From: Ardenticatenales bacterium
GTDB taxonomy: Bacteria > Chloroflexota > Anaerolineae > Promineifilales > UBA4811
Assembly: GCA_030593075.1 (NCBI GenBank)
Contig: JAUVHW010000002.1
Location: 1-46,430, forward strand
Length of the DNA: 46,430 nt
Direction: 5' to 3'
Part shown: piece after piece, positions 2,390 to 43,064 of the stretch
How positions within the stretch are numbered: the stretch's first letter is position 1
Layout of the letters: every line of letters begins with the position of its first letter
Translations under genes and position numbers: made by a program
The notes under the pieces: generated by a model
Told to the model about the DNA's origin: nothing
Database searches by the model: none
The model's input: the letters and a program-made list of their open reading frames with translations, nothing else

Positions 2390-2431
2390 CGTGGCCCCGG
2401 ATCCGGACTCGGTGCGGCAGCGGGCTCTCCC

Positions 2432-9530: not shown

Positions 9531-9555
9531 ACAGAGACGGCCCTTGCCCCAGCCT

Positions 9556-9605
9556 GTGCTGGCCCAGCATGTGTTGGCGCAGCACGTGCTGGCGCAGCAT
9601 GTGCC
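9556..9605. repeat. Tandem 15-nt palindromic repeat, about 3.3 copies
   Basis: GTGCTGGCCCAGCAT / GTGTTGGCGCAGCAC / GTGCTGGCGCAGCAT / GTGCC. Each unit is a 6-3-6 inverted repeat (GTGCTG..CAGCAC), and unit junctions form CAGCA(C/T)GTG(C/T)TG palindromes. Confidence 0.85.
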
Positions 9606-9631
9606 CGATGACCAGGGTTGCGCTTGTTGTT

Positions 9632-9660
9632 TTGACCCAATCCTGGCGGCAGGGTATAAT
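9632..9660 (+). promoter_or_regulatory. Sigma-70-type promoter of the Ser/Thr kinase gene
   Basis: TTGACC (9632-9637), a 17-nt spacer, then TATAAT (9655-9660). Followed by AAGGAGG and GGAGAAGG Shine-Dalgarno elements and the ATG at 9706. Confidence 0.6.
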
Positions 9661-9705
9661 CTGCACCCAGGCAAGAGTTTGCCAAGGAGGCCGGAGAAGG
9701 TACGT

Positions 9706-15110: not shown

Positions 15111-15243
15111 CTCGCCATTATACACCAGCACCTCCGCGGCGCCACGATTGCCCTTTTCAACCTCGCTAGTATACTTGGCCGAGCTGGGCGCCACCTGGTG
15201 TCCCGGCGGTGCTAGATTCATTGGGCAGAACTTCCGATTGCTC

Positions 15244-25023: not shown

Positions 25024-27816
25024 TTATGTCATCTCAAGCCAATTGGGACCTGCCTTGGTATCTGCCTTGAGCGCTGCTCGCAGTTGGTACGCATCCTCCA
25101 TGACTCTCGAAGCCAGTTTGGTGACCGGTTCCAGTTCCTCCGCCGGGACTTCTAGCACCAACTCGTCGTGCACCTGGAGAATCATCCTGGCGCGATAACC
25201 TTCTGTGGCCAGCGCCCGGTGCAGGTCTATCATCGCAATCTTGATGATGTCGGCTGCGCTTCCCTGGATGGGAAAGTTGACCGCCTCTCGTTCGGCTCGC
25301 TGGCGAGCCAGCGCAGAGGTGCGCCCGCCGGCGGCCGTCCCCTGCAGCACCGGGAAGTAGCGCCTACGCCCCAACACTGTCTCGACCCAGCCTTGCTCCT
25401 TTGCCTGGCGGATGGTCTCCTCCAGATAGCCGCGCACCGCAGGGAAACTGTCAAAGTAGGACTCTACGAAATGCTCCGCCTCCGCCAGCGTCAGCTCTGA
25501 CTCCCGCGCCAGTCGAAAAGCGCTCATCCCATATAGCAGGCCAAAGTTAACGCTCTTGGCGAAGCGGCGTTGATCTCGCGTGACCTGGTCGAGAGGGATA
25601 CGATGCACGGCGGCTGCCGTAGTGGCGTGGATGTCCTGTCCGCGCTGGAACGCTTCCAGGAGCCCGGGGTCCTGGCAGATGTGGGCCAGGACGCGCAGCT
25701 CCACCTGGGAATAATCGGCCGCCAGAAAGAGATACCCGGGCCGAGCCACGAACGCGCGCCGAACCTGGCGGCCCAGCTCGGTACGGATGGGGATGTTCTG
25801 CAAGTTCGGCCCCGAAGACGCAATGCGGCCCGTAATCGCGCCGGCCTGGTTGTAGGACGTGTGAATCCGGCCGGTAGCGGGATTCACCATTTCAGGCAAT
25901 GCGTCGACGTACGTGGACTTGAGCTTGGTGACCTCACGGTGCTTCAGAACGCGATCGATGATCGCGTGGCGCCCCTTGAGCGTCTCCAGTACGCCGGCCG
26001 CCGTCGAGTAGTGGCCGGATTTCGTCTTTCGAAGTCCTTCTGTCGGCAGCCCCAGTTCCTCAAACAGCACCTTGCTCAACTGCTGGGTAGAGTTGATGTT
26101 GAAGGGGTGTCCAGCCAGCTGGTGGATGCTCTCCTCCAGCGCGCCCAAGCGGCCGGCCAGCTCGATCGACATCTGCTGCAGAAAGCCGGGGTCTAGCGCC
26201 ACACCGGTCTGCTCCATCTGCGCCAGGACGGGGATCAGCGGCATCTCGACCTCGGCAAAGAGCCGCCACAGCCCCTTCTCCTTCAACTCGGGTTCCAGCT
26301 GTTGCTGCAGACGAAGCGGCATATCGACATCGGCGGCCGCATAGGGCGCCGCCTGGGCTATGGGGACCTGCGCCATGGTGATCTGCTTGGCTCCTCGGCC
26401 AATCAGCTGGACGATCTCGGTCATCTCGACTCCGAGCCGCATCCAGGCCTGGTTCTTCAGCCCCAGGCCGCGACTGGCTGGCTCCAGCAACCAGGCGGCT
26501 AGCATTGTGTCAAAGGTGATGGGGGCCACGCTCAGACCAAGCCGCTCCAACACGGTCAGATCGTACTTGGCATTGTGGGCGACCTTGGGGATTCCCGGGT
26601 CCGTCAGCACCGGCCGCAGCGCGGCGATCACGTCAGCGGCTGGTAGCTGTTTCCCTCTGTCTTCTTCCAGCACGTGCCCCACCGGTACATAGTACGCCTC
26701 GCCGGCAGCCGGACTGACGGCTATGCCCACCAGTTCGGCCGTCATCTCGTCGGTGCTGGTTGTCTCGGTGTCGAAGCAGATTGCCGGGGCTTCCGCCAGA
26801 TGCCTGACTAGTGCCTCCAGGTCGGCCGCGCTGGAAACCACGTGGGTCCGGGTACCGGCGCGCTCAGCGCCAGAAGCAACCGCCGAGTGTGCGACGGCGC
26901 TCTCGGCCTCCGCAAAGAGGCCCAGCTGCCGCCCGTCAGGCCCGGCAGCGCGCTCTCGAAGCCGTTGCCCCAGCGAGCGGAACTCCAGTTCACGCATCAA
27001 GTCGGCCACCCTGGCTCGATCGAAATCGGCCGCCCGGCAGGCCTCCAGGTCTAGCGTCACCGGCACGTCGATGGTGATGCGAGCCAGCCGCTGGCTCAGG
27101 AGAGCGTTCTCCCGCCCCTTGACCAGGGCGCTGCGAAAACGGGCGCTCTCGATCTCGTCCACGTGCTCGTAGATCTGCTCCAGCGTCTCGTATTCCTGCA
27201 GCAGTTTGACGGCCGTCTTGTCCCCAACGCCCCGCACTCCAGGGATGTTGTCTGATGTATCGCCCACCAGCGCCTTATAGTCCACGATCTGATCCGGCCG
27301 GATGCCGTACTTCAACTCTACTGCGCTCGGATCGTACTCATCAGTACCCTTGCGGCCCGCCAGGAGCACGTGTGTCTGCTCGTCCACCAACTGCAGCAGA
27401 TCGCGGTCTCCGGTGAGAATGCGCACCCGTACTCCCTGAGCGGCCGCCTGCTGGGCGATGGTGCCCAAGACGTCGTCCGCCTCGTATCCATCCTTCTCAA
27501 GAATCGGCACGTTGAAGGCGGCTACCACCTCCCGGATGCGATCTACCTGCATGTGCAACTCGTCCGGAGTCTTGGCCCGGGTTGCCTTGTAGTCGGGAAA
27601 GATCTCGTCCCGGAACGTCTTGCCGGTGTCAAAGCTCACCGCCAGGTACTCGGGCGGGTCATCCGCCAGGATCAGGTCCATGAGAGCACGGGCAAAGCCA
27701 TAGGTCGCGTTCGTCGGCTCCCCGGCGCGCGTGGAGAATGAATCCATCGGCAAGGCAAAGAACATCCGGTAAGCCAGTGCGTGGCCATCGACCAGGACCA
27801 GTTCCTTGCGAGGCAT
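25024..27816 (-). CDS. polA: DNA polymerase I
   Basis: 930 aa. 5'-nuclease domain ([24 protein letters not shown]), a central exonuclease-like domain, and polymerase motifs A ([12 protein letters not shown]), B ([14 protein letters not shown]) and C (QVHDELVLE). Confidence 0.97.
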
Positions 27817-28232: not shown

Positions 28233-28261
28233 TTGGCTGCCCTGCCCGAACGTGCTACAAT
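28233..28261 (+). promoter_or_regulatory. Promoter of the microcompartment operon
   Basis: TTGGCT (28233-28238), a 17-nt spacer ending in TGC (extended -10), then TACAAT (28256-28261). Followed by GGAGAGAG (28287-28294) and the TTG start at 28303. Confidence 0.55.
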
Positions 28262-28302
28262 TGCGCCCTGCCCTCTGGAGCGAGACGGAGAGAGTCAGAA
28301 CA

Positions 28303-29049
28303 TTGGATCAGGAAGAGGTCCGTGAGATGGTGCGGCGCGTCGTGCACCGCACCCTGAATGTACCGTACAGCCCGTCTGCGCAGGCTGCCCGGCCTCTGGT
28401 CACAGAGGCCGATGTGCGGGCAGTGCCGGTGGGCAGCCAGCTCTCGGTCCCCAAGGGGGCACTGGTCACCCCGCTTGCCCGCCAGGTTGCCCTCGAGAGG
28501 AAGGTGTCGCTCAACCAGGAGACGCTGCCTCCGGCGCCCTCTGTCGCTGGTGAACCCTGCTCTGAGCGCCGCCCGGACAGCGGCCGGACCGTCGCTCTAG
28601 GCTCAGATCATGGAGGATACCAGCTCAAGGCGGTGCTGGCGGGCTACTTGGAAGAGCTGGGCTATCCAGTAATAGACTGCGGTACTGACAGCACTGCCTC
28701 GGTAGACTATCCGGATTTTGCCCTTGCCGTGGCGAGGCTGGTGGCTCGGGCGCAGGCCTGGCGCGGCATCGTTGTTGACGGCGCAGGGATTGGCTCCTGC
28801 ATGGCTGCCAACAAGGTGCCTGGAGTGCGCGCCGCCATGTGCTACGACCAGGCGACGGCCGTCAACAGCCGCGAGCACAATGATGCCAACGTGCTGACCC
28901 TGGGTGCTGGCCTGATCGGAGCCAACCTGGCCCGGCAGATTGTTAGAACCTGGCTAGAGACGCCGGCCGGGGGCGAGCGGCACGCGCGGCGCGTGGGCAA
29001 GATCATGGACATCGAGCGCCGTTTCCTCAGAGATGTTTCCAGGGGATAA
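28303..29049 (+). CDS. rpiB: Ribose-5-phosphate isomerase B family enzyme with a ~95-aa N-terminal extension (EP-like helix plus conserved module)
   Basis: Core motifs LGSDHGGYQLK, GAGIGSCMAANKVPGVRAA and REHNDANVLTLGA. Start placed at the TTG at 28303 because the predicted promoter lies inside the longer track ORF (28165) and an RBS precedes 28303. The ATG at 28327 is an alternative. Confidence 0.85.
   Translation: MDQEEVREMVRRVVHRTLNVPYSPSAQAARPLVTEADVRAVPVGSQLSVPKGALVTPLARQVALERKVSLNQETLPPAPSVAGEPCSERRPDSGRTVALGSDHGGYQLKAVLAGYLEELGYPVIDCGTDSTASVDYPDFALAVARLVARAQAWRGIVVDGAGIGSCMAANKVPGVRAAMCYDQATAVNSREHNDANVLTLGAGLIGANLARQIVRTWLETPAGGERHARRVGKIMDIERRFLRDVSRG
28396..28512 (+). other. Conserved N-terminal module (copy 1) shared with the class II aldolase
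   Basis: LVTEADVRAVPVGSQLSVPKGALVTPLARQVALERKVSL. 30 of 39 residues are identical to aldolase residues 11-49. Confidence 0.9.
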
Positions 29050-29052
29050 AGC

Positions 29053-29916
29053 GTGAAGAAACTGGACGAGGCGAGGGTCGAGCGCATCATCGAAGAGGTC
29101 ACAAGGCAGGTGCTGCTCGTGATGGAAGAGACCGAGGCAGGCGCAGACCCGGCCGCTGCAGAGCCTATTTCAGCCCACAACTATGTGGACCGAGTCAAGC
29201 CGGTTGTCAACGCCGGCGCGGACCGCCTGGCCAGCACGCTGGGCATCATGCCCACCGACGGCAGCGTGCGTCACATGATCGATCACACCCTGCTCAAGCC
29301 AGATGCGACGCCCGATCAGGTCGCCCAGCTGTGCTTCGAGGCGCGCAAGCACGGTTTTGCCGCCGTGTGTGTCAACCCGGCTCACGTCGAGCTTTGCAGC
29401 CAGCTCCTCAAAGGCAGTGATGTGCTGGTCTGCACTGTTGTGGGCTTTCCTCTGGGCGCCACCTCTACTGAGGCCAAGGTCTTTGAGGCTCAAAAGGCAA
29501 TTCAGGACGGCGCTGCCGAAGTGGACATGGTGGTCAACGTGGGAGCGCTCAAATCCCGCGACATTGGGCTGGTGGAGCGCGACATCGCCTCCCTGGCCCG
29601 GACTTGCCACGCCGGTAACGCTGTTCTCAAGGTGATCATTGAGGCGGCGCTGCTCACCGACGAGGAAAAAGTCATCGCCTGCCAGCTAGCCAAGGTGGCG
29701 GGTGCCAATTATGTCAAGACTTCTACCGGTTTTGGCCCTGGTGGCGCTACTCCTGAAGATGTTGCGCTCATGCGGCGCGTGGTCGGACCCAGCATGGGAG
29801 TCAAGGCAGCTGGCGGCATTCGGACCTACGAGGACGCAACTAGGATGATCGCAGCGGGCGCCACCAGGATAGGCGCCAGCGCCAGTGTGAGAATCATGCA
29901 GGGGGCGCCGGGCTAG
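29053..29916 (+). CDS. deoC: Deoxyribose-phosphate aldolase with a ~70-aa N-terminal extension (EP-like helix)
   Basis: [27 protein letters not shown] and YVKTSTGF (Schiff-base Lys region). N-terminus [27 protein letters not shown] start 4 nt after the rpiB stop. Confidence 0.9.
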
Positions 29917-29953
29917 GAGCAGCCGGAACCTCCATTGCCTCAGGAGAGCGCGA

Positions 29954-30592
29954 ATGTCAGTGGACCTGCGTACTTATGTCTTTCTCGACAGTCTGCAGCC
30001 GCAACACGCCGGCTTTCTCGGCACAGTGGCGCGCGGCTTCCTGCCGCTGCCAAATGACACCTCGCTATGGGTGGAGATCTCTCCCGGAATCGAGATCAAC
30101 CGCATCACCGACATTGCCCTCAAGGCGACCCGTGTTCGCCCCGGGATGCAGATTGTGGAGCGGCTGTTTGGCCTGCTGGAGGTGCACCATGAGGAGCAGG
30201 CCGAGGTGCGGGCGGCTGGTGCGGCGATCCTGGAGGCCCTGGGCGTCGAAGAGTCGGACCGCATCAAGCCCCGGGTGGTCTCCAGCCAGGTCATCCGCCA
30301 CGTAGACGCCCATCAGGTGCAGCTGATCAACCGCATGCGGCACGGGCACATGTTGCTGGCAGGACAGACTCTGTATGTTCTGGAGGTCGAACCGGCCGGA
30401 TATGCAGCGCTGGCAGCCAATGAGGCGGAAAAGGCTGCTCGTATCAACATCCTGGAGGTTCGCGCCTTTGGCAGCTTTGGGCGCGTCTACCTGGGCGGTG
30501 AAGAGAGGGATATCATGGCTGGCTATGGCGCGGCCGTGGCTGCCATCGAAGCTGTGAGCGGGCGCATGGTAGAGACCCGGCGCCGCGACTAG
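29954..30592 (+). CDS. BMC-T shell protein, CcmP/CsoS1D-like tandem (permuted) BMC domains
   Basis: [26 protein letters not shown]...[20 protein letters not shown] and [36 protein letters not shown] closely follow the CcmP sequence as I recall it. 212 aa, i.e. two BMC folds. Confidence 0.8.
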
Positions 30593-30637
30593 TCTTACTG
30601 GAGAACGAGTGCAAACCCCACTTGTCAGGAGGATACC

Positions 30638-30931
30638 ATGACCGATGCACTTGGAATGATCGAGACCAAGAGCTTCCCGGCTATGGTCGAGGCTGCCGAC
30701 GCTATGGTCAAGGCAGCCAAGGTCGAGTTGGTGAGCTACGAAAAGACGGGCGGAGGCCAGGTGACCGCAGTCGTGCGCGGTGACGTGGCGGCCGTCAAGG
30801 CGGCCGTAGAGGCAGGCGCACGCGGAGCCGAGAGGGTTGGAGAGGTAGTTGCCATCCACGTCATCCCGCGGCCGCACGCCAACGTGGACGTGACTCTTCC
30901 GCTGGGCCGCACACCGGCCGAAGGCAAGTAG
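30638..30931 (+). CDS. BMC-H hexameric shell protein (PduA/EutM/CcmK-like)
   Basis: [57 protein letters not shown] is the canonical PF00936 BMC-domain sequence. 97 aa. Confidence 0.95.
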
Positions 30932-30983
30932 CCGCCCTCCAGGCGCAAGGGCAGGACCCGACTGCGCGCCGGGGGCGGGAGCG

Positions 30984-31006
30984 ATGCGTGGGTCCTTCCC
31001 ACGCAT
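30984..31006 (+). other. Intra-operon stem-loop directly after the BMC-H gene
   Basis: Perfect 9-bp stem ATGCGTGGG/CCCACGCAT with loop TCCTT, followed by TTTGCCGTTACTT (short, interrupted U tract). Confidence 0.6.
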
Positions 31007-31039
31007 TTGCCGTTACTTGCACCTTGAACGGAGTTCTCT

Positions 31040-31339
31040 ATGCTGCTAGGAAGAGTAGTGGGTACGCTGGTCGCCACCCGCAAAGAGCCGTCGCTGGGGG
31101 GGCTCAAGTTCCTGGTGCTCAAGCAACTCGACATTGAGGGGCAGGAGACAGGCGGCTATCGGGTGGCGGCCGACGCCGTGGGAGCTGGCCTTGGAGAGGT
31201 GGTGCTCTATGCCACCGGCAGCGCCGCGCGCCAGACCAAGCTGACGGACCGCCGACCCTGCGACGCCGTGATCATGGCCATCGTGGACACCGTGGAGGTG
31301 GACGGCGTGGTCAAGTACGAGAAGGCTGAGGCCGATTGA
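31040..31339 (+). CDS. BMC-P pentameric vertex protein (EutN/CcmL family), paralog 1
   Basis: [15 protein letters not shown]...[10 protein letters not shown]...[22 protein letters not shown] is the typical PF03319 pattern. 99 aa. Confidence 0.9.
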
Positions 31340-32811
31340 TGATGGACGATGCCCGCATCGAAGCCATCATCCAGGAGGTGATGGATGAGCTGAACCTGGG
31401 CGACCGGCCGCGGCATGGTCCGTCGCCCCAGCCACTGCGCCCCGCCACGCTCGCTGAGCTTGCGCCTGCCCCCCAGCTGCACCACGGCGACAATCTGTTT
31501 CCGGATGTCGAAAGCGCGGTTGCGGCCGCCCGCCGCGCCTACCTGCAGCTGGCGGACCTTCCGCTGACGTTGCGCGAGCGCATGATCGCCCAGATCCGCC
31601 GCGTGATGCGGGAGAACGCGCAGCTCCTGGCGCACGAAGCCTGGCGCGAGACGGGGATGGGCCGCTACGAGGACAAGATCCAGAAGAACTTGCTCAACGC
31701 CAACAAGGCGCCCGGCACCGAGATCCTGGACCCGACCGCCTGGAGTGGGGACGACGGCCTGACTCTGGTCGAGTACGCACCCTATGGCGTGATTGGGTCG
31801 ATTATCCCCAGCACCAATCCCACCTCCACCGTCATCTGCAATGTCATTTCCATGGTCGCGGCCGGCAACGCCGTGGTATTCAATGCCCACCCAGGCGCGC
31901 GCGGCTGCTCCAACCACACCGTGCAGCTGGTGAACGAGGCCATCGTCCAGGTAGGCGGCCCGCCCAACCTGGTCTGCGCACTGGCCGAACCGACCATAGA
32001 GACCGCCCAGCAGATCATGCGCCACCCCGATGTGGGGTTGCTGGCGGTCACAGGCGGGGCAGCTGTGGTGCAGGCGGCGATGCAGAGCGGTAAACGCGCG
32101 GTCTGCGCCGGCCCGGGCAATCCTCCGGCCGTGGTGGATGAGACGGCCGATCTGCAGCAGGCAGGGCGAGACATCGTGCTGGGTGCCTCCTTTGACAACA
32201 ACGTCATTTGCATCGACGAAAAAGAGATCTTTGCGGTGGACAGCATTGCCGACGATCTGAAGCGGTCCATGTGCAGCAACGGAGCCCTCGAGATCAGCTC
32301 CCGGCAGCTCGATCGCCTCTCCCAGTCGATCTTTGACCAGGTTCCGCCGGCCGGGCAGCATGGCGCCATGAACAAGGCCTTCATAGGCAAGAATGCGAGC
32401 CTACTGCTCCAGGAGATCGGCATTGAGGTCGGGGAGGAGGTACGGCTGATATTGGTGGAAGTAGAGCCGGATCACCCGCTGGTACTGTCGGAGCAGATGA
32501 TGCCCATTGTGCCGCTGGTCCGCGTTCGCGATGCTGACCAGGCCATCGATCTGGCAAAGAAGGCAGAGCATGGTTTTCGGCACACGGCCGTGATGCACTC
32601 CAAGCACCTGGACCATCTGAGCCGCATGGCGCGCGAGATGGATTGCAGCATTTTTGTCAAGAACGCTCCTTCCTATGCTGGCGTTGGATATCGCGGCGAG
32701 GGTTTTTGCTCCTTTACGATTGCCAGCGCCACCGGCGAAGGGCTGACCAACCCTATCAGCTTCAGCCGCATCCGCCGCTGCACTCTTAAGGACTCCTTCA
32801 GGATCGTCTGA
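31339..32811 (+). CDS. CoA-acylating aldehyde dehydrogenase (PduP/EutE-like) with an N-terminal EP-like helix
   Basis: CAGPGNPPAVVDETAD and FDNNVICIDEKE (catalytic Cys context) are typical of BMC-associated acylating AldDH. N-terminus [21 protein letters not shown]. The start overlaps the stop of the preceding gene. ATG at 31339 or 31342. Confidence 0.9.
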   Translation: MMDDARIEAIIQEVMDELNLGDRPRHGPSPQPLRPATLAELAPAPQLHHGDNLFPDVESAVAAARRAYLQLADLPLTLRERMIAQIRRVMRENAQLLAHEAWRETGMGRYEDKIQKNLLNANKAPGTEILDPTAWSGDDGLTLVEYAPYGVIGSIIPSTNPTSTVICNVISMVAAGNAVVFNAHPGARGCSNHTVQLVNEAIVQVGGPPNLVCALAEPTIETAQQIMRHPDVGLLAVTGGAAVVQAAMQSGKRAVCAGPGNPPAVVDETADLQQAGRDIVLGASFDNNVICIDEKEIFAVDSIADDLKRSMCSNGALEISSRQLDRLSQSIFDQVPPAGQHGAMNKAFIGKNASLLLQEIGIEVGEEVRLILVEVEPDHPLVLSEQMMPIVPLVRVRDADQAIDLAKKAEHGFRHTAVMHSKHLDHLSRMAREMDCSIFVKNAPSYAGVGYRGEGFCSFTIASATGEGLTNPISFSRIRRCTLKDSFRIV

Positions 32812-32868
32812 GGGCCCGCGGACGGGTCTGACTCCAGGTTCTGGCACCTGAGCGGGATGTTATGAGAG

Positions 32869-33459
32869 ATGGTTGAGCCAGCGCTGGTACTGGTAGAGCT
32901 GAACAGTATCGCGGCCGGCATCGAGACGGCCGACGCCATGGTCAAGCGCGCGCCGATTGACCTGATCAAGGCTGGCACGGTGCAGCCGGGCAAGTACCTG
33001 GTACTGATTGGGGGGCTAGTGGCTGACGTCGAAGAGTCGCTGGCTGCCGGCCGCCAAGTCGGTGGCCCGGCTGTGGTAGACACCGTCTATCTGCCCCAGG
33101 TGCACCCCGAGGTGGTCGAGGCCGTCGCGGGGGGGCGGGTACCGCAGGCGACCGACGCCGTGGGAGTGATAGAGACGACCACCGTCGCGGCCGCCATCCA
33201 CGCGGCCGACGCAGGTGTCAAGGGGGCCGAGGTACGACTGCTGGAGGTACGGCTGGCGGACGGGCTGGGCGGCAAGGGCATTGTGCTCTTCTCCGGCCTG
33301 GTGGCCGATGTGGAGGCCGCGGTTCGGATCGGTGTCGGGGCGCTGGAGCGGCCAGAGCTCCTGGTGAGGCAGGTGGTCATCCCCCAGCTGCACCCCGAGA
33401 TGTGGGAGAACGTCGCTGACGCCACCCGCTTCCGCAGCCGGGTGATGGGCAACCTATGA
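32869..33459 (+). CDS. BMC-T shell protein, PduT-like tandem BMC domains, cysteine-free
   Basis: LVLVELNSIAAGIETADAMVKRAP...VQPGKYLVLIGG and VGVIETTTVAAAIHAADAGVKGAEV...GKGIVLFSG...IPQLHPEMW parallel PduT. The translation contains no Cys. Confidence 0.85.
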   Translation: MVEPALVLVELNSIAAGIETADAMVKRAPIDLIKAGTVQPGKYLVLIGGLVADVEESLAAGRQVGGPAVVDTVYLPQVHPEVVEAVAGGRVPQATDAVGVIETTTVAAAIHAADAGVKGAEVRLLEVRLADGLGGKGIVLFSGLVADVEAAVRIGVGALERPELLVRQVVIPQLHPEMWENVADATRFRSRVMGNL

Positions 33460-34025
33460 AGCCGATCCTGCTCGACTTCCCCGATTCCTTCGAGACCGAG
33501 CGGCTCACCATCCGTTCGCCCTTGCCGGGCGACGGCACCGAACTGCAGGCGGCCGTGGCCGAGACGCTGGATGACCTGGCCCCCTGGATGCCCTGGGCTG
33601 ACCACCTACCCAGTGTCGACGAGGAGGAAGAGGCGGTGCGCAGGGCGCGCGCTCGCTTCCTGACCCGCGAGGACCTCTGGCTCCTGCTCCTCCTCAAGGA
33701 TAGTAGCACCATCGTTGGGGGGAGCGGACTGCACCGCATAGACTGGGAGGTTCGCCGGTTTGAGATCGGCTTCTGGGCGCGGAGGCGCGTTGCCGGCCAG
33801 GGTTACATCTCGGAGGCCGTCCGCGGCATCACTCGGTTTGCCTTTGAGACGCTCGGTGCCCGTCGGGTCGAGATTCGCTGCGACGAGCGCAACGGGCGGA
33901 GCCGCCGGGTGGCGGAGAGGGCGGGCTTTTCGCTGGAGGCGACTCTTCGCAACCACGCCTTGGCGGCCGACGGCGAGCTGCGCAACACGCTGATCTACGT
34001 CCGGCTGGAATCAGCAGAAGCCTGA
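33456..34025 (+). CDS. GNAT N-acetyltransferase (RimJ/RimL-like, Acetyltransf_3 type)
   Basis: ETERLTIRSP...WLLLLK...IGFWARRRVAGQGYISEAVRGITRFAFETLGARRVEIRCDERNGRSRRVAERAGF follows the RimJ/L pattern. ATGA overlap with the upstream shell gene and TGATG overlap with the downstream one. Confidence 0.8.
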   Translation: MKPILLDFPDSFETERLTIRSPLPGDGTELQAAVAETLDDLAPWMPWADHLPSVDEEEEAVRRARARFLTREDLWLLLLLKDSSTIVGGSGLHRIDWEVRRFEIGFWARRRVAGQGYISEAVRGITRFAFETLGARRVEIRCDERNGRSRRVAERAGFSLEATLRNHALAADGELRNTLIYVRLESAEA

Positions 34026-34351
34026 TGAAGTTCGCGCGCGTTCTAGGCACGGTGGTCGCCACCCGCAAGTACGAAGGGCTTGAGGGGATCAAGTTCCTGG
34101 TGGTGCAGCCCCTCGATAGGGACCTGCATCCGCACGGGGAACCTGTGGTCGCGGCCGACGCCACCGCCCAGGCCGGGCCCGGCGAGTTGGTCTTCATGGT
34201 AGCTAGCCGTGAAGGCGCGCAGGCGCTGCCCGAGGTATTCGTGCCGGTTGACCTGGCGATCACCGGGATTGTGGACGAGGTCGAAGTAGAGCGCGGTGAG
34301 CGCCGGCAGCAGCCCACGGCCGTGTGGCATCCCGTGTCTGAGGGCGACTGA
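34025..34351 (+). CDS. BMC-P vertex protein (EutN/CcmL family), paralog 2
   Basis: MKFARVLGTVVATRKYEGLEGIKFLVVQPLD...AADATAQAGPGELVFMVASREG. 108 aa. Confidence 0.85.
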   Translation: MKFARVLGTVVATRKYEGLEGIKFLVVQPLDRDLHPHGEPVVAADATAQAGPGELVFMVASREGAQALPEVFVPVDLAITGIVDEVEVERGERRQQPTAVWHPVSEGD

Positions 34352-34353
34352 CG

Positions 34354-34626
34354 GTGTACATCGGCAAGGTCATCGGCACGGTCGTCGCCACTATCAAGAT
34401 ATCCCACCTGGACCGTCGCAAGCTGCTCCTGGTGGACCAACTGGACCTGCAGGGGCAGGAGACCGGCTACTATGACATTGCGGTCGACGTGGTGCAGGCC
34501 GGACCCGGCGACACCGTGCTGGTGATCGATGAGGGGAACGGGGCACGCCAAATCCTGGGGCTGGACCCCGGCGCAGTGCGGGCAGTCGTCGTCGGGGTGG
34601 TGGACGAGGTGGCTTTGGGCAGCTAG
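34354..34626 (+). CDS. BMC-P vertex protein (EutN/CcmL family), paralog 3
   Basis: GTG start. MYIGKVIGTVVATIK...LLLVDQLD...AVDVVQAGPGDTVLVIDEGNGARQ. 90 aa. Confidence 0.85.
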   Translation: MYIGKVIGTVVATIKISHLDRRKLLLVDQLDLQGQETGYYDIAVDVVQAGPGDTVLVIDEGNGARQILGLDPGAVRAVVVGVVDEVALGS

Positions 34627-35080
34627 CCCCGAGCAGGCTGCACGTTCCCGCCAGGGGCGGCACGCGCCAGTGCCACGCCGATCCATTTGTACAGAGGCCT
34701 GGCCGGAGAGAAAGCCTGCCGGGTCCTAGCGGGGAGCCGACGCACTGCCAGCCACCCAGATGCGCCTGTGGTGGGCCGGCCAGGCCTTCAAGAAGCCTAC
34801 TCTCGCAGATCTGTGGGTAGCGGTCATGGGAGTTCATCGTGTCAGACCAGTCCTCGGCCGGGCTTCTGGGCTGACGCCTTCCTGGGTGGCAGGTTGGGCT
34901 AGATCCCGAGGTAGCGAGCTGGGAACGCGCACCACGAACTCCCCGCTGTAATCGTCAACCAGGCAGCTGATCATGCTCATCTGTGTCCTGGTCTGCAAAG
35001 CCCTTCCGCGACTGGCCCAGTGAATATGCGCCTGGCGGACCAACCGCGGGGTGCAAGCCGGCAGCGACAGTCACCAAGTC

Positions 35081-35872
35081 TCAGCGCGTGTCTGCCGCCC
35101 GCTGCACCAACTCCAGAAACCCCGGCGTCAGGCTGGCGCCGCCCACCAGCGCGCCGTCTATCTCTGGCATCGCCATGAAAGAGGCAATGTTCTCGGCCGT
35201 TACGCTGCCGCCGTAGAGCACTCGCACTGCCTGGGCCGTCGCCTCCCCGAATGATTCTGCAATAGCCCCTCGTATCGTGAGGCCGATCACGCGGTTTGCC
35301 CCGGCCGGCGTCGATGCCCTGCCCGTGCCGATGGCCCAGATAGGCTCGTAGGCGATCGCGCACTTGCCTACATCCTCGGCCGTCAGGCCCTCCAGCGCGG
35401 CTCTCACTTGGCCTCCGATGAACTGGTGTGTCTCGCCTGCTTGATTCTGCTCCAGGTTCTCGCCCACGCACACGATGGGTGTCAGGTTGTGAGCCAGTGC
35501 GGCATGAACCTTGCGGCTGACCGCGCTGTCGCCTTCCAGGCCCCGAACTGGCTCCGGGGAGGCCACCCGGCCGCTCCGGCGCTCCGAGTGACCCAGGATG
35601 ACGTACTGGCACACACCTGTCAACATGGCGGGCGAGACCTCGCCGGTGTATGCGCCGCAGTCCTCCCAGTGCATCGTCTGTGCGCCCAGGCCGATGCGCG
35701 TGGGCCGCAACACCTCCGCCACCACTGCCAGCACGGTGAAAGGGGGGCACACCACCCGCTCCACTCCCTCGATCTGGCTCAGCGGGTACCGGATGCGACG
35801 CACCAGCGCCAGTGCTTCCTCGACCCGGCCCAGGTTCATCTTCCAGTTGCCGACGATGATGGGTGTTCGCAT
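35081..35872 (-). CDS. tpiA: Triose-phosphate isomerase
   Basis: The ATG at 35872 gives MRTPIIVGNWKMN. GHSERR, AYEPIWAIGTG (catalytic Glu) and YGGSV are present. There is a short insertion after GHSERR. The track ORF start at 35950 adds 26 non-conserved residues. Confidence 0.9.
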   Translation of the reverse strand: MRTPIIVGNWKMNLGRVEEALALVRRIRYPLSQIEGVERVVCPPFTVLAVVAEVLRPTRIGLGAQTMHWEDCGAYTGEVSPAMLTGVCQYVILGHSERRSGRVASPEPVRGLEGDSAVSRKVHAALAHNLTPIVCVGENLEQNQAGETHQFIGGQVRAALEGLTAEDVGKCAIAYEPIWAIGTGRASTPAGANRVIGLTIRGAIAESFGEATAQAVRVLYGGSVTAENIASFMAMPEIDGALVGGASLTPGFLELVQRAADTR

Positions 35873-35996
35873 TCTGTCTGCCAGCGGAACGGCCGTCCGA
35901 CTCCAGCCTGCGGCGGCAGCGTTCCTCTCCAGGCGAGGATTATACGCCATTGCCGGGCCCTGACCAGGAGCGCTTCAGGTGCTGGCGCCAGTTGGG

Positions 35997-36025
35997 TTGC
36001 TCCAAGTTGGGGCGGCTGCTATAAT
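35997..36025 (+). promoter_or_regulatory. Promoter of the class II aldolase gene
   Basis: TTGCTC (35997-36002), a 17-nt spacer, then TATAAT (36020-36025). It sits about 55 nt upstream of the GTG at 36081. Confidence 0.55.
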
Positions 36026-36080
36026 CGCGCTGCCGAGCATGAGCCAGCGTTCAGATCAGATAATGGACCGGAGACTATAG

Positions 36081-36908
36081 GTGACCAGGCAGCAGTCCAG
36101 GAGCCGGCAGCTGGTAACAGAGCAGGACGTGCGCGCCGTTCCGCCCGGAGGGCAGTTCGCTGTCCCCCGCGGGGCGCTGGTAACGCCCCTGGCTCGGCAG
36201 GTGGCTATGGAGCGCGGGGTGACCCTGAGGGAGCCAGGAGCGGCGCCGGCCCTTGAGGAGGACGGGCTGCGCGGCGAAATCGTGCGCGTCGGCCGACTCC
36301 TGCACCAGAAGGGGTTCGTCGCTGCCACCGCGGGGAACATCTCTGCCCGCCTGGGCCCTGACAGAATCCTGGCCACCCCCAGCGGCCGGCACAAGGGGTT
36401 CCTGCGCGCTGACGAGCTGATCGTCGTTGACCTGGAGGGACAGCCCGTGGGTCCACGGCCGAGGCTCGGGCCGACCTCCGAGATGCCCATGCATCTGGAG
36501 GTCTACCGCCAGCGGCCGGAGGTCGGCGCAGTAGTCCATGCCCACCCTCCAATTGCGGTGGCGCTCAGCACGGCCGGGATCTCTCTGGCCGAGCCTATGC
36601 AGCCCGAAACCGTCATCACCCTTGGCGAGATCCCTACCACAGAGTACGCGACGCCCTCGACACACGAGAACGTTGAGGTGATTCGGGATCTGATTGGGCG
36701 GCACGACGCCATCGTGTTGCGCCGGCATGGCGCTCTCACGGTTGGGGCTGACCCTTTTGACGCCTACGCGAAAATGGAGATCCTGGAGCACACCGCGCAC
36801 GTTGCGATGCTGATGCGTCTGGTCGATGGGGCTGAACCGCTCTCCCCCGAGCAGGTGGAGAAGCTGCTGGCGCTGCGGGAGCGGTTTGGCGGGCAGCCTC
36901 TGGGATGA
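36081..36908 (+). CDS. Class II (zinc) aldolase/epimerase family protein (FucA/RhaD/AraD-like) with a ~50-aa N-terminal extension
   Basis: ATAGNISARL, SEMPMHLEVY, VVHAHPP and LRRHGALTVG are class II aldolase/adducin-domain motifs. GTG start preceded by GGAGAC. The N-terminal module matches RpiB. Confidence 0.85.
   Translation: MTRQQSRSRQLVTEQDVRAVPPGGQFAVPRGALVTPLARQVAMERGVTLREPGAAPALEEDGLRGEIVRVGRLLHQKGFVAATAGNISARLGPDRILATPSGRHKGFLRADELIVVDLEGQPVGPRPRLGPTSEMPMHLEVYRQRPEVGAVVHAHPPIAVALSTAGISLAEPMQPETVITLGEIPTTEYATPSTHENVEVIRDLIGRHDAIVLRRHGALTVGADPFDAYAKMEILEHTAHVAMLMRLVDGAEPLSPEQVEKLLALRERFGGQPLG
36111..36227 (+). other. Conserved N-terminal module (copy 2) shared with the RpiB-like enzyme
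   Basis: LVTEQDVRAVPPGGQFAVPRGALVTPLARQVAMERGVTL. 30 of 39 residues are identical to copy 1, and 17 of the 30 identical residues use different codons. Confidence 0.9.
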
Positions 36909-37248
36909 GCGCGACCATGGAGGCAGAGAAAACAGGGCGGGCAGGCGGCCGGGAAGCAGCGCTTCGACCTGAGCCTCCGTGCCCCTGCCATCAAGAGTTC
37001 CCACATCGCATCACGCCTTCCAGCAGATCTCTATTCCTCTCTCTGCCTGCTGCTCAGTCGACTGGCGCTCCCAGTGACTTGTGGTACTCTCTGTTCACCT
37101 GTGGGGCGAGTTCGTCGCTGTTCTTTCGGGTTGACGAGTCGGCTCTCTGTCGTCGCGTACCGCACGGAACCAGCTCTTGCACAGCCAGGCTGATGCCGCC
37201 TGCGCTGGTGCAGCCGGCTGTTTCTGTGCTTGCAGCAGAGTGACTGCA

Positions 37249-40200
37249 ATGTCTGGATCGGAACCCGTCCGCATTCTATACATGGAGGACGATGCCGCCC
37301 TTGCTCGTCTCACGCAGAGGAAGCTCGGGCAGTTCGGCTATAGCGTGGACCTGGCTTGCGACGGCGAGGAGGGCCTTGCCATGTACGCTGCGGGCGCCTA
37401 CGATCTGGTGGCGGTGGACCACCAGATGCCTGGGCACAGCGGACTGGAAGTAATCCGGACCCTCGCCGCTCAGGGTCAGCTGCCACCCACGATCATGATT
37501 ACCGGTGCTGGCAGCGAAGAGACGGCCGTGGAGGCCATGAGGCTGGGTGTGGGCGACTATGTAATCAAGGACGTGGAGGGTGGATACCTTGACCTGCTGC
37601 CCACGGTGATTGAGCGGGTGCTGGAGCAGCGGAAGCTCGCGGAGGAGAAGCGGCGGGCCGAGGAGGCGCTGCAGAAAGCCCACGCTGAGCTCAAAAGGCG
37701 AACGAAGGAACACACCGCCGAGCTGACCGTCCTGCTGGAAGCAGCTAGAGCGATCTCGTCCACCACCAGTCTCAAGAACCTGCTCACCCTCATTGCCCAG
37801 CAGATGGTGAGAGCCGTTGGCGCCTCTGGCTGCACTATTTCCCGGCTGGACCAAGGACCCGACGAGGTCGTAACTTGGATCGAATGGCGAGAGGCTTCGG
37901 GACCTCCCGACGAGCCGGGCACTGCCTACGCCCTGGATGACTTCCCAGCCACGCGGTCCGTGCTGGAACGTCGTGAGCCTCTCAGTATCTTGGTCTCCGA
38001 TCCTGATGCTGATCCGGCCGAAGTCGAGTTGATGCGTCAGGTGGGCTCGGCAAGCCTGCTCATGTTGCCCTTGGCGGCTGGTGATCAGGTCATCGGCGTC
38101 GTCGAGATAGATGAGTCGAAGCGCGAGCGGCGGTTCACAGCCGCCGAGATTCACCTGTGCCAGGCTCTGGCGGACCAGGCTGCGGTGGCCATCCAGAAGG
38201 CCTGGCTGTACGAACAAGCTCAGCAGGAAATCGCCGAGCGGGTGCGAGGGGAGCAGGCTTTGCGGGAGAGCGAGGAACGCTTCCGGGCGGTGTTTGAGAC
38301 GGCTGAAGACTCTATCTTTATCAAGGACCGCTCACTACGGTACACACACGTCAATCCGGCCATGGAGAGGCTATTCGGGGTCTCGGCTTCGGAACTGATC
38401 GGCCGGACGGATGTGGATCTCTTTGGGCAGGAGGCCGGGGAACACATCAGCGAGGTAGATTCCCGTGTCCTAGGTGGCGAGATCGTCAAGGAAGAGGATA
38501 CCAAACCCGTGAAGGGGATTCCACATACCTTTCACGTCGTCAAGGTGCCCATGCGGGACAGCTCTGGCGAGATAGCAGGGCTCTGCGGGATTGCCCGCGA
38601 GATCACCGAGCGGGTGCAGATTGAGGAGGCGCTGAGAGAGGCCCGTGATGAGTTGGAAATGCGGGTCGAGGAACGAACGGCCGAGCTCGCCATGGCCAAC
38701 GAGCAGCTGCGCCTGGGGCTCGCCGAGCTGGAGCGAGCGCAAGAGCGGCTCCAGGGCCGCGAGCGCTTCCTCAGACTACTCAACGATATCACCCGCGCTG
38801 CCCTGGAGACGCCCGATCTGCAGGCCATGCTCCAGATCCTGGCAGACCAGCTCGGTGGGCTGTTCGATGCCGACGGCTGCGTCATCTGCCTGTGCGACCA
38901 GGCGCGGCAGACGACCATTGGAGCCGCGGCCGGCGGCGACACCATGGACCTTTGCTCCGGCCTCCAGTCCAGCGCTGACGAGCCGACCATGGTCGAGCGG
39001 GTGCTGCGCCATGGAAGGCCGCTCGTGGCTGGAGATCTGTTGGATCACCCAGAGGTGAGCCCAAGCATCCCTGAAGCGCTGGCGGCCCGCTCTGTGCTCG
39101 GCCTGCCGCTGGTTGCCGGGGCACAGGAACTGGGAGCAGCTTTTGTCCTCTTCAATGACCCGCACGAGTTCGCCCCGGAGGAAGTTGAGCGCGGCGAGCA
39201 TGTGGCGGGCCAGGTTGCCCTGGCTATCGCCAAGGCCTCCCTGCTAGAGACGGAACGAGAACAGCGCAAGTTGGCTGAGACCTTGCGGGAGGTCGGCAGT
39301 GCACTGAGCAGCACCCTCGACCGCGAGCAGGTACTGCGTCTCATTCTGGAGCAGCTGGGCCAGGTGGTCGCCTATGATAGCGCCTCCGTAATGCTTGTTT
39401 CCGGTGCTGAGCTAGAGACCGTCGCCAGGCGCAGTCTTGATCCGCAGGCCCTGCCGGGAGCCGCTTCCCCTGAGGTAGCAGCCCTGCCGCATGTCCAGAG
39501 GACTCTCCAGAGGAACCTGCCCGTCGTAATCCCGGACACCGCGCGCGACCCGGACTGGCTGCAGCTGCCCGGTACCGAGCAGATACGCTGCTGGCTGGGA
39601 GTACCGCTGGTGGCACGGGATCAGGCAGTCGGCCTGCTCAACCTGAACAAGAAGGAGGCGCACTCCTATTCTGAGCGGGATGCCCAGGTCGCTGCGATCT
39701 TTGCGGCACAGGCGGCTATGGCCATCGAAAACGCCCAGCTCTTTGCAGAGACGCAGAGCCGCTTCCAGGAAATGACGGCTCTGTACGGCATCTCACTCGA
39801 TATCACTGGTCGTCTGGAGATGTCAGGACTGCTCCAATCGATTGTGCAGCGGGGCAGCGAGCTGCTGAACGCTGACTCTGGCGGTGTCTACCTGTACGAT
39901 GAAGAGAGAGATGAGCTGAGACTGGCCGTTGGTCACGGTGACGCCGCGCGCCACGTGGGGGGAACCCTCAGGCCGGGCGAGGGCATAGCCGGCCGGGTGC
40001 TCCAGACAGGAGAGCCCATTGTTGCTGATGACTACCGGGAATGGGACGCCAAGCCCGCGTGGTTGCAGGATAGCGATCTGTCCAGGGCAGTGCTTGAGGT
40101 GCCGCTCAGGTGGGAGGAGCGCGTCGTAGGCGTGCTCTTTATCGACGCCGACTGCCGGGAGCGAACGTTTGGTCCCGAGGATGTCCGCGTGGCCAAGCTC

Positions 40201-40998: not shown

Positions 40999-41070
40999 AC
41001 CAGGAAGGGAACGGGCCTGTGGGTCGTCTTCTCGCCCGATCAGCCGTCACTGTATCTGGGAACTCTCTTC

Positions 41071-43047: not shown

Positions 43048-43064
43048 ACAATAGGGAGACGATA

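Follow-up and report, generated by a model that had tools for sequence, protein, structure and literature searches.

The locus examined here spans positions 28303-36908 of the window, as we call the whole stretch of 46,430 nucleotides that was analysed. It comprises 12 genes, encoding an RpiB-like protein (RPI), DERA, two BMC-T, one BMC-H and three BMC-P proteins, an aldehyde dehydrogenase (AldDH), a GNAT, TPI, and a class II aldolase. The first-pass annotation had listed this same gene content, and all 12 genes lie where it placed them, 11 of them above the Pfam cut-off, the exception being the CcmP-like BMC-T. Its description of a promoter-led, packed plus-strand operon followed by a divergent TPI/class II aldolase pair holds for the pair and for the spacing, neighbouring genes overlapping by 4, 4 and 1 nt or lying 2 to 108 nt apart. 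As for the promoter, a consensus scan located a promoter-like candidate (28233..28261, plus strand; TTGGCT-17-TACAAT, extended TG) suitably placed 42 nt upstream of the operon's first gene, but such matches are no rarer than chance (2 found in the region versus 1.0±1.1 expected from shuffles). A Shine-Dalgarno-like GGAGAGAG lies 8 nt upstream of TTG 28303, the start proposed for RPI.

Searches with PF00936 and PF03319, as suggested at first pass, matched five shell proteins, all encoded on the plus strand: the BMC-H hexamer (97 aa; 30638..30931; PF00936, 1e-30), the PduT-like tandem-domain BMC-T(s) (196 aa; 32869..33459; PF00936 twice, 8e-36), and BMC-P pentamer proteins 1 (99 aa; 31040..31339; PF03319, 1e-28), 2 (108 aa; 34025..34351; PF03319, 8e-24) and 3 (90 aa; 34354..34626; PF03319, 5e-23). 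The two shell peptides quoted in that annotation occur in BMC-H and the first BMC-P, and the BMC-H edge motifs, KAAK and PRPH, are standard. The name PduT-like is apt for the fold of BMC-T(s) and not for the Fe-S pore site: the protein has zero cysteines, so it cannot hold the Fe-S cluster of the PduT pore, and its TIGR02526 score of 108 bits is below the cut-off. The double-stacking, tandem-domain, CcmP-like BMC-T(dp) (212 aa; 29954..30592, plus strand) is sub-threshold with PF00936 (E=0.007). Against solved structures it matches CcmP (5lsr, E=4e-92) and HO-5816 (5v74, E=3e-77), its Glu69-Arg70 is identical to CcmP in the alignment, and it belongs to a 90%-identity cluster of 936 sequences. 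The shell would thus combine a single BMC-H with three BMC-P paralogues and two tandem-domain proteins, the gated, CcmP-like BMC-T(dp) and BMC-T(s), which is free of Cys.

Because this BMC-T(dp) also exceeds the NCBIfam equivalog cut-off for beta-carboxysome CcmP (369.6 bits versus 340), the cluster might be taken for a carboxysome-related or decayed relic with no working catabolic organelle. We regard this as extremely improbable: RuBisCO, CcmM/N/K/O and carbonic anhydrase are all missing from the window, all 12 reading frames are intact, the catalytic residues of DERA and AldDH are conserved, and the gene order is kept across phyla. The synteny comparison that had been proposed among Chloroflexota found the order RPI-DERA-Tdp-H-P-AldDH-Ts-P-P in Anaerolineae and beyond that phylum, in most of 37 shell-bearing loci drawn from Anaerolineae, Gemmatimonadota and Akkermansiaceae MAGs (Verrucomicrobiota).

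The initial assignment to the SPU class was correct, and it can be narrowed to SPU3 through a syntenic relative and the written definition of that subtype. The relative, L008 (Chloroflexi RBG_19FT_COMBO_62_14), has the gene order of the window, shares 88% identity with it in BMC-T(dp), and is labelled 'SPU3 (main), Tdp_mustardGreen_ccmPlike-chloroflexi' in Supplementary Data 4 of Sutter et al. 2021 (PMC8217296). SPU3 is there defined by AldDH, pfam01791 and pfam02502, with N-terminal encapsulation peptides (EPs) on AldDH and DERA, and by a shell with a single BMC-H, BMC-P as a triplet, a BMC-T(dp) of CcmP-like type, and a BMC-T(s) that has no pore Cys and no accompanying PduS (PMC8217296). The window agrees on each point that could be checked here, being alike in enzyme set, N-terminal extensions on AldDH and DERA, and shell set. 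It differs in having a GNAT between BMC-T(s) and BMC-P2 and the TPI/class II aldolase divergent pair, each of which occurs in only a minority of relatives, and in encoding RPI and DERA as separate genes, which are fused in some SPU3 loci. Neither flank (PolA and OTCase upstream, hybrid sensor kinases downstream) has a signature enzyme of PDU, EUT, GRM or PVM, whose presence would have spoken against the initial assignment, and no signature enzyme of PDU, EUT, GRM or the carboxysome lies anywhere in the 46 kb window. We therefore consider it likely that this is a complete SPU3-subtype BMC (metabolosome) in an Anaerolineae-like Chloroflexota genome, a judgement that covers the pathway and targeting proposed below as well.

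Two earlier statements about novelty are out of date. The class had been described as having no experimental characterisation, whereas DERA and RPI of an SPU6 locus have been tested by Dwyer, Sutter and Kerfeld 2024 (PMC11585597); and the locus had been called the window's strongest candidate for an undescribed system, whereas SPU was catalogued by Sutter et al. 2021, with more than 280 loci in 26 phyla and seven subtypes, SPU3 among them with n=31 (Nat Commun, PMC8217296). Within this widespread, already catalogued family the cluster is unexceptional. Assembly of SPU-like Hodarchaeales shells was achieved in 2025 (PMC12747264); our literature search found no report of native SPU compartments in bacteria. 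In vitro tests of SPU enzymes have been made only for the SPU6 locus of Chloroflexi bacterium GWB2_54_36 (Commun Biol 2024, PMC11585597), whose host phylum, Chloroflexota, is that of the window. Unlike the window, SPU6 has an AldDH with a C-terminal EP from another branch of the AldDH tree, a BMC-T(dp) of the 'blue' EUT3-like clade rather than a CcmP-like one, no BMC-T(s), a GntR regulator, and a separate EutQ-like protein of ~130 aa in place of a module fused to RPI and aldolase.

The SPU signature enzyme DERA (29053..29916, plus strand) scores 277 bits with TIGR00126 deoC (1e-82; cut-off 117) and 3.9e-14 with Pfam DeoC, and matches PDB 8qps across residues 72-287 (2e-79). Its D158, K222 and K251 do not vary among 30 homologues, and its N-terminal extension of ~70 residues begins with an amphipathic helix. 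The CoA-acylating AldDH (31336..32811, plus strand; start TTG 31336 or ATG 31339) matches NF011927 (8e-196), Pfam Aldedh (4e-38) and the BMC AldDH structures 4c3s (4e-131) and 5jfl (3e-123), with the Cys aligned in FDNNVICIDEKE. Purified SPU6 DERA cleaves deoxyribose 5-phosphate (Dwyer, Sutter and Kerfeld 2024, PMC11585597), the kinetics being those of an enzyme from a different subtype than the window's SPU3.

From these features we infer both encapsulation and the in vivo substrate. Deoxyribose 5-phosphate released when deoxynucleosides or DNA are broken down would enter the shell and be cleaved by DERA into glyceraldehyde 3-phosphate plus acetaldehyde; the acetaldehyde would be held back by the shell and converted by the CoA-acylating AldDH to acetyl-CoA with formation of NADH, while glyceraldehyde 3-phosphate would leave for glycolysis, where TPI could interconvert it with DHAP. 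N-terminal amphipathic helices would target DERA and AldDH to the compartment. Since the window has no gene for deoxyribose or nucleoside uptake, or for a kinase, mutase or phosphorylase, the substrate assignment comes from DERA alone; in one relative, L087, a PNP_UDP_1 nucleoside phosphorylase lies directly upstream of the operon. The locus likewise encodes no phosphotransacylase (PTAC), alcohol dehydrogenase or PduS, so that CoA and NAD+ would have to pass through the shell by exchange or be recycled in some other way.

The first gene of the operon encodes the RpiB-like protein (28303..29049, plus strand; 248 aa from the TTG; PF02502, LacAB_rpiB, 7e-52), which consists of an N-terminal amphipathic helix (DQEEVREMVRRVVHRTL), a module resembling the EutQ N-terminus, a linker and the RpiB domain. 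Aligned with RpiB 3ph3, it reads 'rgivvDgAgig' against 'rgivicgtglg', the catalytic Cys being replaced by Asp and the adjoining Thr by Ala. Because these two residues are absent, the protein is most likely an adaptor and not an isomerase: through its RpiB domain it would bind DERA, as the SPU6 DERA and RPI are reported to form a complex (PMC11585597), while its N-terminal region has the helix and a ~44-residue domain akin to the part of EutQ that binds the shell. It is rather unlikely, by comparison, that the protein is a working isomerase on another sugar phosphate, using Asp as the base and feeding or draining the DERA reaction. An acidic residue could in principle stand in for Cys, the protein keeps the RpiB fold and most of the residues that bind substrate (NF004051, 170 bits), and RPI and DERA lie side by side almost everywhere and in some SPU3 loci are fused, as expected of consecutive enzymes. 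However, the SPU6 RPI, which carries the same change (Cys66→Asp), has negligible activity on ribose 5-phosphate (PMC11585597), and the window's protein has lost the neighbouring Thr too. It also bears two targeting-type elements, the helix and the module, and the two or three module copies in some relatives (L009, P0406) fit a scaffold better than an enzyme.

The module of ~44 aa, at residues 29-72 of RPI (nt 28387-28518), recurs at the N-terminus of the class II aldolase (residues 8-51, nt 36102-36233), where it is 66% identical (E=5e-20) and is modelled by AF2 with pLDDT 90-96. Both copies have a pattern in common with the EutQ N-terminus (LxTxxDVxxxxxGxxLxVxxxAxxTPxARxxAxxxxV), and BLASTP against E. 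coli EutQ aligns them with residues 2-47 (aldolase copy E=3e-6, RPI copy E=1e-3). The top NCBIfam matches, individually weak (E 0.003-0.05), are all microcompartment proteins (eut_hyp, EutQ, PduM), and a 53-sequence module profile run against the E. coli eut region matched only the N-termini of EutQ and EutT. A profile built from the two window copies retrieved 137 cluster representatives out of 1.84 billion, among them a true EutQ-family protein (P0448), with fusion partners that include RpiB, Aldolase_II, EutQ cupin, PduL-type PTAC and TIM. By sequence comparison, the module is homologous to the EutQ N-terminus, for which shell binding by helices H1/H2 (residues 9-41) has been demonstrated experimentally (Sci Adv 2025, PMC12487888). 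This homology suggests that the module tethers RPI and the aldolase to the shell, as the EutQ domain tethers cargo to shell proteins of the ethanolamine-utilisation BMC. In EutQ, however, the domain sits on a cupin acetate kinase, and the cargo-binding helices H3/H4 of EutQ are not evident in the window proteins. In Vicinamibacterales (Acidobacteriota), module-bearing RPI and DERA pairs occur that lack any shell gene in the 10 kb around them; they may be satellite loci, or else the module does something besides shell binding.

The RimJ/RimL-type GNAT N-acetyltransferase (33456..34025, plus strand; 189 aa; PF13302, 2e-26) lies between BMC-T(s) and BMC-P2 in translational coupling, its start overlapping the stop of the former and its stop the start of the latter. 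The same Ts-GNAT-P-P arrangement is found in four independent metagenome contigs (L083-L086; 76-80% identity). Given this position, the absence of PTAC from the locus and an acetyl-CoA motif R-x-x-G-x-G (RRVAGQG), the enzyme could recycle CoA in this sub-lineage in place of phosphotransacylase, by passing the acetyl group of the acetyl-CoA formed inside the shell to an amine acceptor, or could acetylate the N-termini of shell or cargo. We consider either role improbable. No encapsulation peptide or module was found in the GNAT sequence, the gene is absent from 33 other shell-bearing relatives, most SPU3 loci lack both GNAT and PTAC, and a homologue with 63% identity sits in a non-microcompartment context; a literature search found nothing on GNATs in microcompartment operons. 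In L083, an unrelated esterase gene is inserted between AldDH and BMC-T(s), so that this stretch of the operon may simply tolerate insertions.

Beyond the shell genes, the class II aldolase (FucA/adducin-type; 36081..36908, plus strand; PF00596, Aldolase_II, 6e-50) is probably also recruited to the compartment, because it carries the same domain as the RpiB-like protein, and would act as a second enzyme forming an aldehyde plus DHAP. It is a real but less likely possibility that it is a second signature enzyme of a dual-entry metabolosome, cleaving a ketose 1-phosphate to DHAP and an aldehyde within the shell: L-fuculose or L-rhamnulose 1-phosphate to lactaldehyde, as in PVM organelles, or 5-deoxyribulose 1-phosphate to acetaldehyde, as in the DHAP shunt, with the DHAP then converted by TPI. 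If so, the organelle would have uses beyond the catabolism of DNA sugars. In addition to the module common to the aldolase and RPI, several observations point this way: more distant homologues of the aldolase have a C-terminal CxxCGVC motif and an amphipathic-helix EP, like other microcompartment aldolases; a TPI(-)/aldolase(+) pair likewise follows the SPU3 operon of L087; PF00596 comprises DHAP-dependent aldolases, with FucA and the 5-deoxyribulose-1-P aldolase 6btd among the structural neighbours; and Axen 2014 pointed to class II aldolases as a source of aldehyde in SPU-like, PVM and GRM5 loci. Against it, the aldolase is absent from 33 of the 33 shell-bearing relatives found via DERA, and so is not core to the SPU3 subtype; it falls under all NCBIfam equivalog cut-offs (the best being an OtnC-type decarboxylase, 123 bits versus 250), so that even aldolase activity is not certain; and the window has no kinase or isomerase to supply a ketose 1-phosphate. 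PVM loci, from Planctomycetes and Verrucomicrobia, have in common with the window a BMC-P triplet, a PF00596 class II aldolase (there generating an aldehyde and DHAP) and a CoA-acylating AldDH; they differ in taxa, in lacking DERA, RpiB and BMC-T, in having PTAC and acetate kinase, and in the C-terminal EP of their aldolase.

Upstream of the aldolase, TPI (35081..35872, minus strand; PF00121, 3e-77) is convergent with the shell operon, as it also is in 10 related loci; its sequence shows no evident encapsulation peptide or module. Its start is most probably at 35872 (Met27 of the long ORF) rather than 35950, and a promoter-like site lies nearby on the minus strand, at 35966-35939.

To judge from its genes alone, there is strong support for reading this region as a sugar phosphate utilisation (SPU) microcompartment locus of subtype SPU3, a metabolosome whose deoxyribose-5-phosphate aldolase (DERA) and CoA-acylating aldehyde dehydrogenase (AldDH) look active, and whose RpiB-like protein (RPI) appears disabled. 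Every gene named in the first-pass annotation was recovered when the ORF list was scanned with Pfam and NCBIfam, giving a plus-strand operon of ten genes with two neighbours beside it. RPI (28303-29049), DERA (29053-29916) and AldDH (31336-32811) were identified from the ORF list, Pfam and NCBIfam. The shell genes comprise a 212-aa tandem-domain protein, BMC-T(dp), with a weak Pfam but a strong CcmP match (29954-30592), one single-domain PF00936 protein, BMC-H (30638-30931), a second tandem-domain protein found by Pfam, BMC-T(s) (32869-33459), and three PF03319 proteins, BMC-P1 (31040-31339), BMC-P2 (34025-34351) and BMC-P3 (34354-34626). A GNAT gene (33456-34025; Pfam) lies between BMC-T(s) and BMC-P2. 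Beside the operon are triosephosphate isomerase (TPI; 35081-35872, or to 35950 for the longest ORF) on the minus strand and a class II aldolase of PF00596 (36081-36908) on the plus strand, both Pfam matches. All six shell genes fall within 4.7 kb, so that BMC-H and BMC-P are clustered, and the BMC-P genes are placed as in other SPU loci, with the first at 31040 and the other two side by side at 34025-34626.

Genes within the operon overlap or are separated by 2-108 nt, and the TTG start of RPI at 28303 is preceded by the ribosome-binding site GGAGAGAG. The operon had been described as promoter-led; a promoter-like match is indeed present at 28233-28261, but such matches are equally frequent in shuffled sequence. 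A terminator scan gave no convincing operon terminator, and Rfam and tRNA scans of the window returned nothing, with no riboswitch upstream of the operon. The canonical N-terminus of TPI begins at Met27 (35872), and a promoter-like match (TGGTCA-16-TATAAT, 10/12; 35966-35939, minus strand) overlaps the ATG of the longest ORF; the 26-residue extension is probably not translated.

DERA and an RpiB-like protein together with shell genes are what define an SPU locus, and the class had been correctly assigned. Its name was coined from loci with DeoC plus TIM (Axen 2014), and more than 280 such loci from 26 phyla have been catalogued in seven subtypes (Sutter 2021; PMC8217296). The description of the class as lacking experimental characterisation is, however, outdated, as DERA and RPI of an SPU6 locus from Chloroflexi were purified and assayed by Dwyer, Sutter and Kerfeld in 2024 (PMC11585597), and shells of SPU-like type from Hodarchaeales were assembled in a 2025 preprint (PMC12747264). 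The 2024 study measured turnover of deoxyribose 5-phosphate by SPU6 DERA, found negligible ribose-5-phosphate isomerase activity for SPU6 RPI, reported a Cys66→Asp replacement in all SPU RPIs, and isolated a ~131 kDa DERA-RPI complex (PMC11585597). The suggestion of an undescribed system is thereby superseded: the class is known and partly characterised, and this SPU3 locus, with hundreds of near-identical loci catalogued, does not represent a new kind of system. SPU loci belong to the most widespread types of microcompartment, and an intact, compact example offers a usable template for expression studies.

Two things underlie the subtype call: a syntenic relative that has been typed, and the written SPU3 definition. 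The relative, Chloroflexi bacterium RBG_19FT_COMBO_62_14, is labelled 'SPU3 (main)' in the tree file of the catalogue, and its 212-aa protein, labelled Tdp_mustardGreen_ccmPlike-chloroflexi, is matched by the BMC-T(dp) of the window at 88% identity (tblastn). The definition fits exactly, with AldDH, pfam01791 and pfam02502 as enzymes and N-terminal encapsulation peptides (EPs) on AldDH and DERA, both of which carry N-terminal amphipathic helices as read from their sequences. Its shell part fits as well: BMC-H is single and standard (KAAK and PRPH motifs), BMC-P forms a triplet, BMC-T(dp) is CcmP-like, and BMC-T(s) contains no Cys and has no PduS partner among the ORFs scanned in the window. 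SPU6, the usual subtype in Chloroflexi, is excluded, as it would need a C-terminal EP on AldDH, a BMC-T(dp) that is not CcmP-like, and no BMC-T(s); the C-terminus of AldDH aligns to the end of 4c3s without an extension.

Other microcompartment types were weighed in the same way. PDU, EUT and GRM loci are ruled out by the lack of their signature enzymes, with no diol dehydratase, ethanolamine ammonia-lyase or glycyl-radical enzyme found by Pfam among ORFs of at least 180 aa in the 46 kb window. In the PVM type (Planctomycetes or Verrucomicrobia), the class II aldolase bears a C-terminal EP, a PTAC is encoded and BMC-T is lacking, whereas the aldolase here has an N-terminal module, PTAC is missing and there are two BMC-T genes, which rules out this type too. 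RuBisCO, PTAC, PduS and alcohol dehydrogenase were likewise absent from the Pfam results for the 46 kb window, and thus the concern that signature enzymes of a characterised type might lie just outside the locus is not borne out within it. A beta-carboxysome is ruled out since RuBisCO and CcmK/L/M/N are missing from the window and only the CcmP-like protein is present. That protein is the sole weak Pfam match of the locus (E=0.007); its matches to solved CcmP (5lsr, 4e-92) and to the Haliangium BMC-T(dp) (3e-77) show that it had rightly been called CcmP-like. With 369.6 bits it also passes the 340-bit threshold of the NCBI equivalog for beta-carboxysome CcmP, in a window without carboxysome genes, so automated annotation may label it as CcmP. 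Clustering at 90% identity places it among 936 members, of which the named ones are 'hypothetical protein' and those with an organism come from Anaerolineales, Chloroflexota and Gemmatimonadota metagenome-assembled genomes (MAGs).

Scanning one genome per GTDB species for DERA gave 80 loci, against which the window proteins were searched by tblastn. Among these, the order RPI-DERA-Tdp-H-P-AldDH-Ts-P-P (Tdp and Ts being the two BMC-T proteins) recurs in Anaerolineales, Ardenticatenaceae and Promineifilaceae, Gemmatimonadota and one Akkermansiaceae MAG, often with TPI convergent to it. The best GTDB relatives are Anaerolineales MAGs, with 80% identity in DERA.

The enzymes themselves differ in how well their catalytic residues are preserved. 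DERA matches TIGR00126 with 277 bits, and its residues 72-287 align with solved DERAs (8qps, 2e-79), keeping D158, K222 and K251, which are invariant in 30 homologues; residues 1-70 form a microcompartment-specific extension missing from the solved proteins. AldDH matches NF011927 at 8e-196, and its nearest structures are the microcompartment AldDHs 4c3s (~1e-131) and 5jfl (~1e-123). Its catalytic Cys aligns with that of 4c3s, and about 50 N-terminal residues, starting with an amphipathic helix, lie outside the solved core; with this Cys and an extension of EP type, it has the features of a metabolosome AldDH and is predicted to be encapsulated. RPI matches PF02502 at 7e-52, and in alignment to 3ph3 it has Asp at the position of the catalytic Cys and Ala in place of the adjacent Thr, the former replacement being shared with the SPU6 RPI shown by Dwyer et al. 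to be inactive.

RPI and the class II aldolase share a module of ~44 residues near their N-termini, with residues 29-72 of the former and 8-51 of the latter 66% identical (E=5e-20). It surfaced in tblastn cross-matches and was missed by Pfam at E≤0.01. Its motif is kept in the RPI N-termini of most relatives, occasionally in two or three copies; two RpiB-like proteins, one at 1742-2986 of the related locus L009 and the other (P0406) found by module profile, have two or three tandem modules ahead of the RpiB domain. By sequence comparison the module qualifies as a homologue of the EutQ N-terminus (residues ~2-47). It matches residues 2-47 of E. coli EutQ at E=3e-6 and 1e-3, and its best NCBIfam matches, though weak, are all to microcompartment proteins (the eut_hyp C-terminus, EutQ N-terminus and PduM C-terminus). 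Of 349 six-frame ORFs from the E. coli eut region, a profile of 53 copies matched only EutQ and EutT, at their N-termini. A profile built from the two copies in the window found 137 cluster representatives in 1.84 billion proteins, with fusion partners including RpiB (30 of the 57 longer proteins), Aldolase_II, the EutQ cupin, PduL-type PTAC, TIM and PDU_like. One of these proteins (P0448; E=2.5e-6 with the two-copy profile) is a true EutQ-family member whose identity to the cupin domain from E. coli is 52%. In an AlphaFold2 model of the aldolase, the module is predicted with confidence as a small α/β domain (pLDDT 90-96), and the linker between it and the aldolase core has low confidence.

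In Salmonella, EutQ binds the shell through helices H1/H2 (residues 9-41), and its N-terminus alone sends GFP to the organelle (PMC12487888). A mention of EutQ was found neither in the 2024 SPU paper nor in the main text of the 2021 catalogue, whose supplement refers solely to a separate EutQ-like protein of ~130 aa in SPU6 (PMC8217296). Within the E. coli K-12 eut operon, the match to the N-terminus of EutT, a corrinoid adenosyltransferase, scores 19 bits, and E. coli EutQ itself matches the first ~88 positions of the NCBIfam model for the reactivase EutA (1.6e-9); from these two matches, the domain may be common to several Eut cargo proteins. Vicinamibacterales and other Acidobacteriota MAGs (L034-L036, L040, L041, L045, L050, L056, L057 and others, at ~9200-10800 in each) have the module at the very N-terminus of an RpiB-like protein, without a preceding helix, in a gene adjoining DERA, and no shell gene was detected within 10 kb of these pairs. 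Satellite loci are one possible explanation and a use of the module outside microcompartments is another, which is a caveat to the interpretation that follows.

In the pathway that we propose, deoxyribose 5-phosphate would enter through BMC-H or a gated BMC-T(dp) and be cleaved by DERA to acetaldehyde and glyceraldehyde 3-phosphate (G3P). AldDH would convert the acetaldehyde to acetyl-CoA, while G3P would leave the shell and be equilibrated with dihydroxyacetone phosphate (DHAP) by TPI. RPI would bridge DERA to the shell by its EutQ-like module, and the aldolase would be recruited through the same module. We advance tentatively, as a reading somewhat short of probable, that the disabled RPI is the shell-cargo adaptor of SPU3, its RpiB domain holding DERA and its module, present here also on the aldolase and elsewhere on TPI, PduL-type PTAC, eut_hyp-like proteins and EutT, acting as a second general targeting signal distinct from the amphipathic-helix EP. 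Such a role would be analogous to that of EutQ, CcmN or CsoS2, and would explain why, in the 2024 study, RPI was inactive and formed a complex with DERA. If the module binds shells, this would account for the retention by SPU organelles of an inactive isomerase bound to DERA, and would give engineers a second targeting tag; as a candidate tether to the shell, the EutQ-like domain is the transferable lead.

In the class II aldolase the family fold and the His ligands are preserved, and no NCBIfam equivalog cut-off is reached. The structures closest to it are those of YgbL/OtnC, FucA and 5-deoxyribulose-1-P aldolase, and a search for its substrate by NCBIfam, PDB sequence search and Foldseek of the AlphaFold2 model singled out none, with FucA, OtnC/YgbL, MtnB-like and DrdA scoring alike. 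Enzymes of PF00596 are DHAP-dependent aldolases, not fructose-bisphosphate (FBP) aldolases, and we therefore infer that cleavage of a ketose 1-phosphate to DHAP and an aldehyde is more likely than FBP synthesis. The latter was suggested for the aldolase by Dwyer et al. (PMC11585597). Homologues at 56-70% identity have a matching N-terminal extension, while more distant ones have instead a C-terminal CxxCGVC motif and amphipathic helix, the usual microcompartment EP.

Neither the aldolase nor the GNAT is unique to this genome. In one related contig (L087) the whole layout RPI…P-P-TPI(-)-aldolase(+) is present. The GNAT is absent from the 80 GTDB loci; its homologues are nevertheless numerous at 76-82% identity, and the arrangement Ts-GNAT-P-P-TPI(-) is found in at least four metagenome contigs. 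A further homologue at 63% identity lies in a context without any microcompartment. The window joins three optional features of an SPU3 sub-lineage. A GNAT-bearing relative (L083, 8549-9352) has an esterase-type gene (BD-FAE/Peptidase_S9) between AldDH and BMC-T(s), so that this part of the operon may tolerate insertions.

Pfam found no deoxyribose-supply genes in the whole window, the remainder of which consists of housekeeping and signalling genes. In L087, genes at 273-3187 for a Zn-dependent alcohol dehydrogenase, a nucleoside phosphorylase (PNP_UDP_1) and a protein with a SIS domain precede the SPU3 operon, the sole context evidence seen for a nucleoside supply route and possibly for NAD+ recycling. 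Downstream of the locus, Pfam identified two hybrid GAF/PAS histidine kinases, a response regulator and a methyltransferase. The kinases and response regulator (37177-44186) directly follow the aldolase, the first kinase being REC-GAFx4-PAS-HisKA-HATPase (1273 aa) and the second REC-GAF-PAS-HisKA-HATPase (658 aa), and they may be regulators of the SPU locus; an orthologous aldolase in GCA_030671995.1 (L088) is likewise followed by a 1782-aa SBP/GAF sensor.

Upstream are PolA, an ornithine or aspartate carbamoyltransferase, a TPR protein, CdaA, YbbR and Der, and farther upstream MetRS, ETF and a Ser/Thr kinase (Pfam). Two further observations concern regions 9544-11730 and 14284-16302. A Ser/Thr protein kinase there has an NBR1-like Ig domain (PF16158). 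The longest ORF with the QueA domain (PF02547, residues 324-671) has an N-terminal extension of ~320 residues without a Pfam match, which probably reflects an over-long ORF call. The SPU operon is directly preceded by PolA (25024-27816), which is encoded on the opposite strand, and in the closest GTDB relative, an Anaerolineales MAG, a PolA homologue with 59% identity (L002 2321) is also on the minus strand upstream of the operon; this shared placement suggests that the locus has been vertically inherited within this lineage despite its cross-phylum spread.
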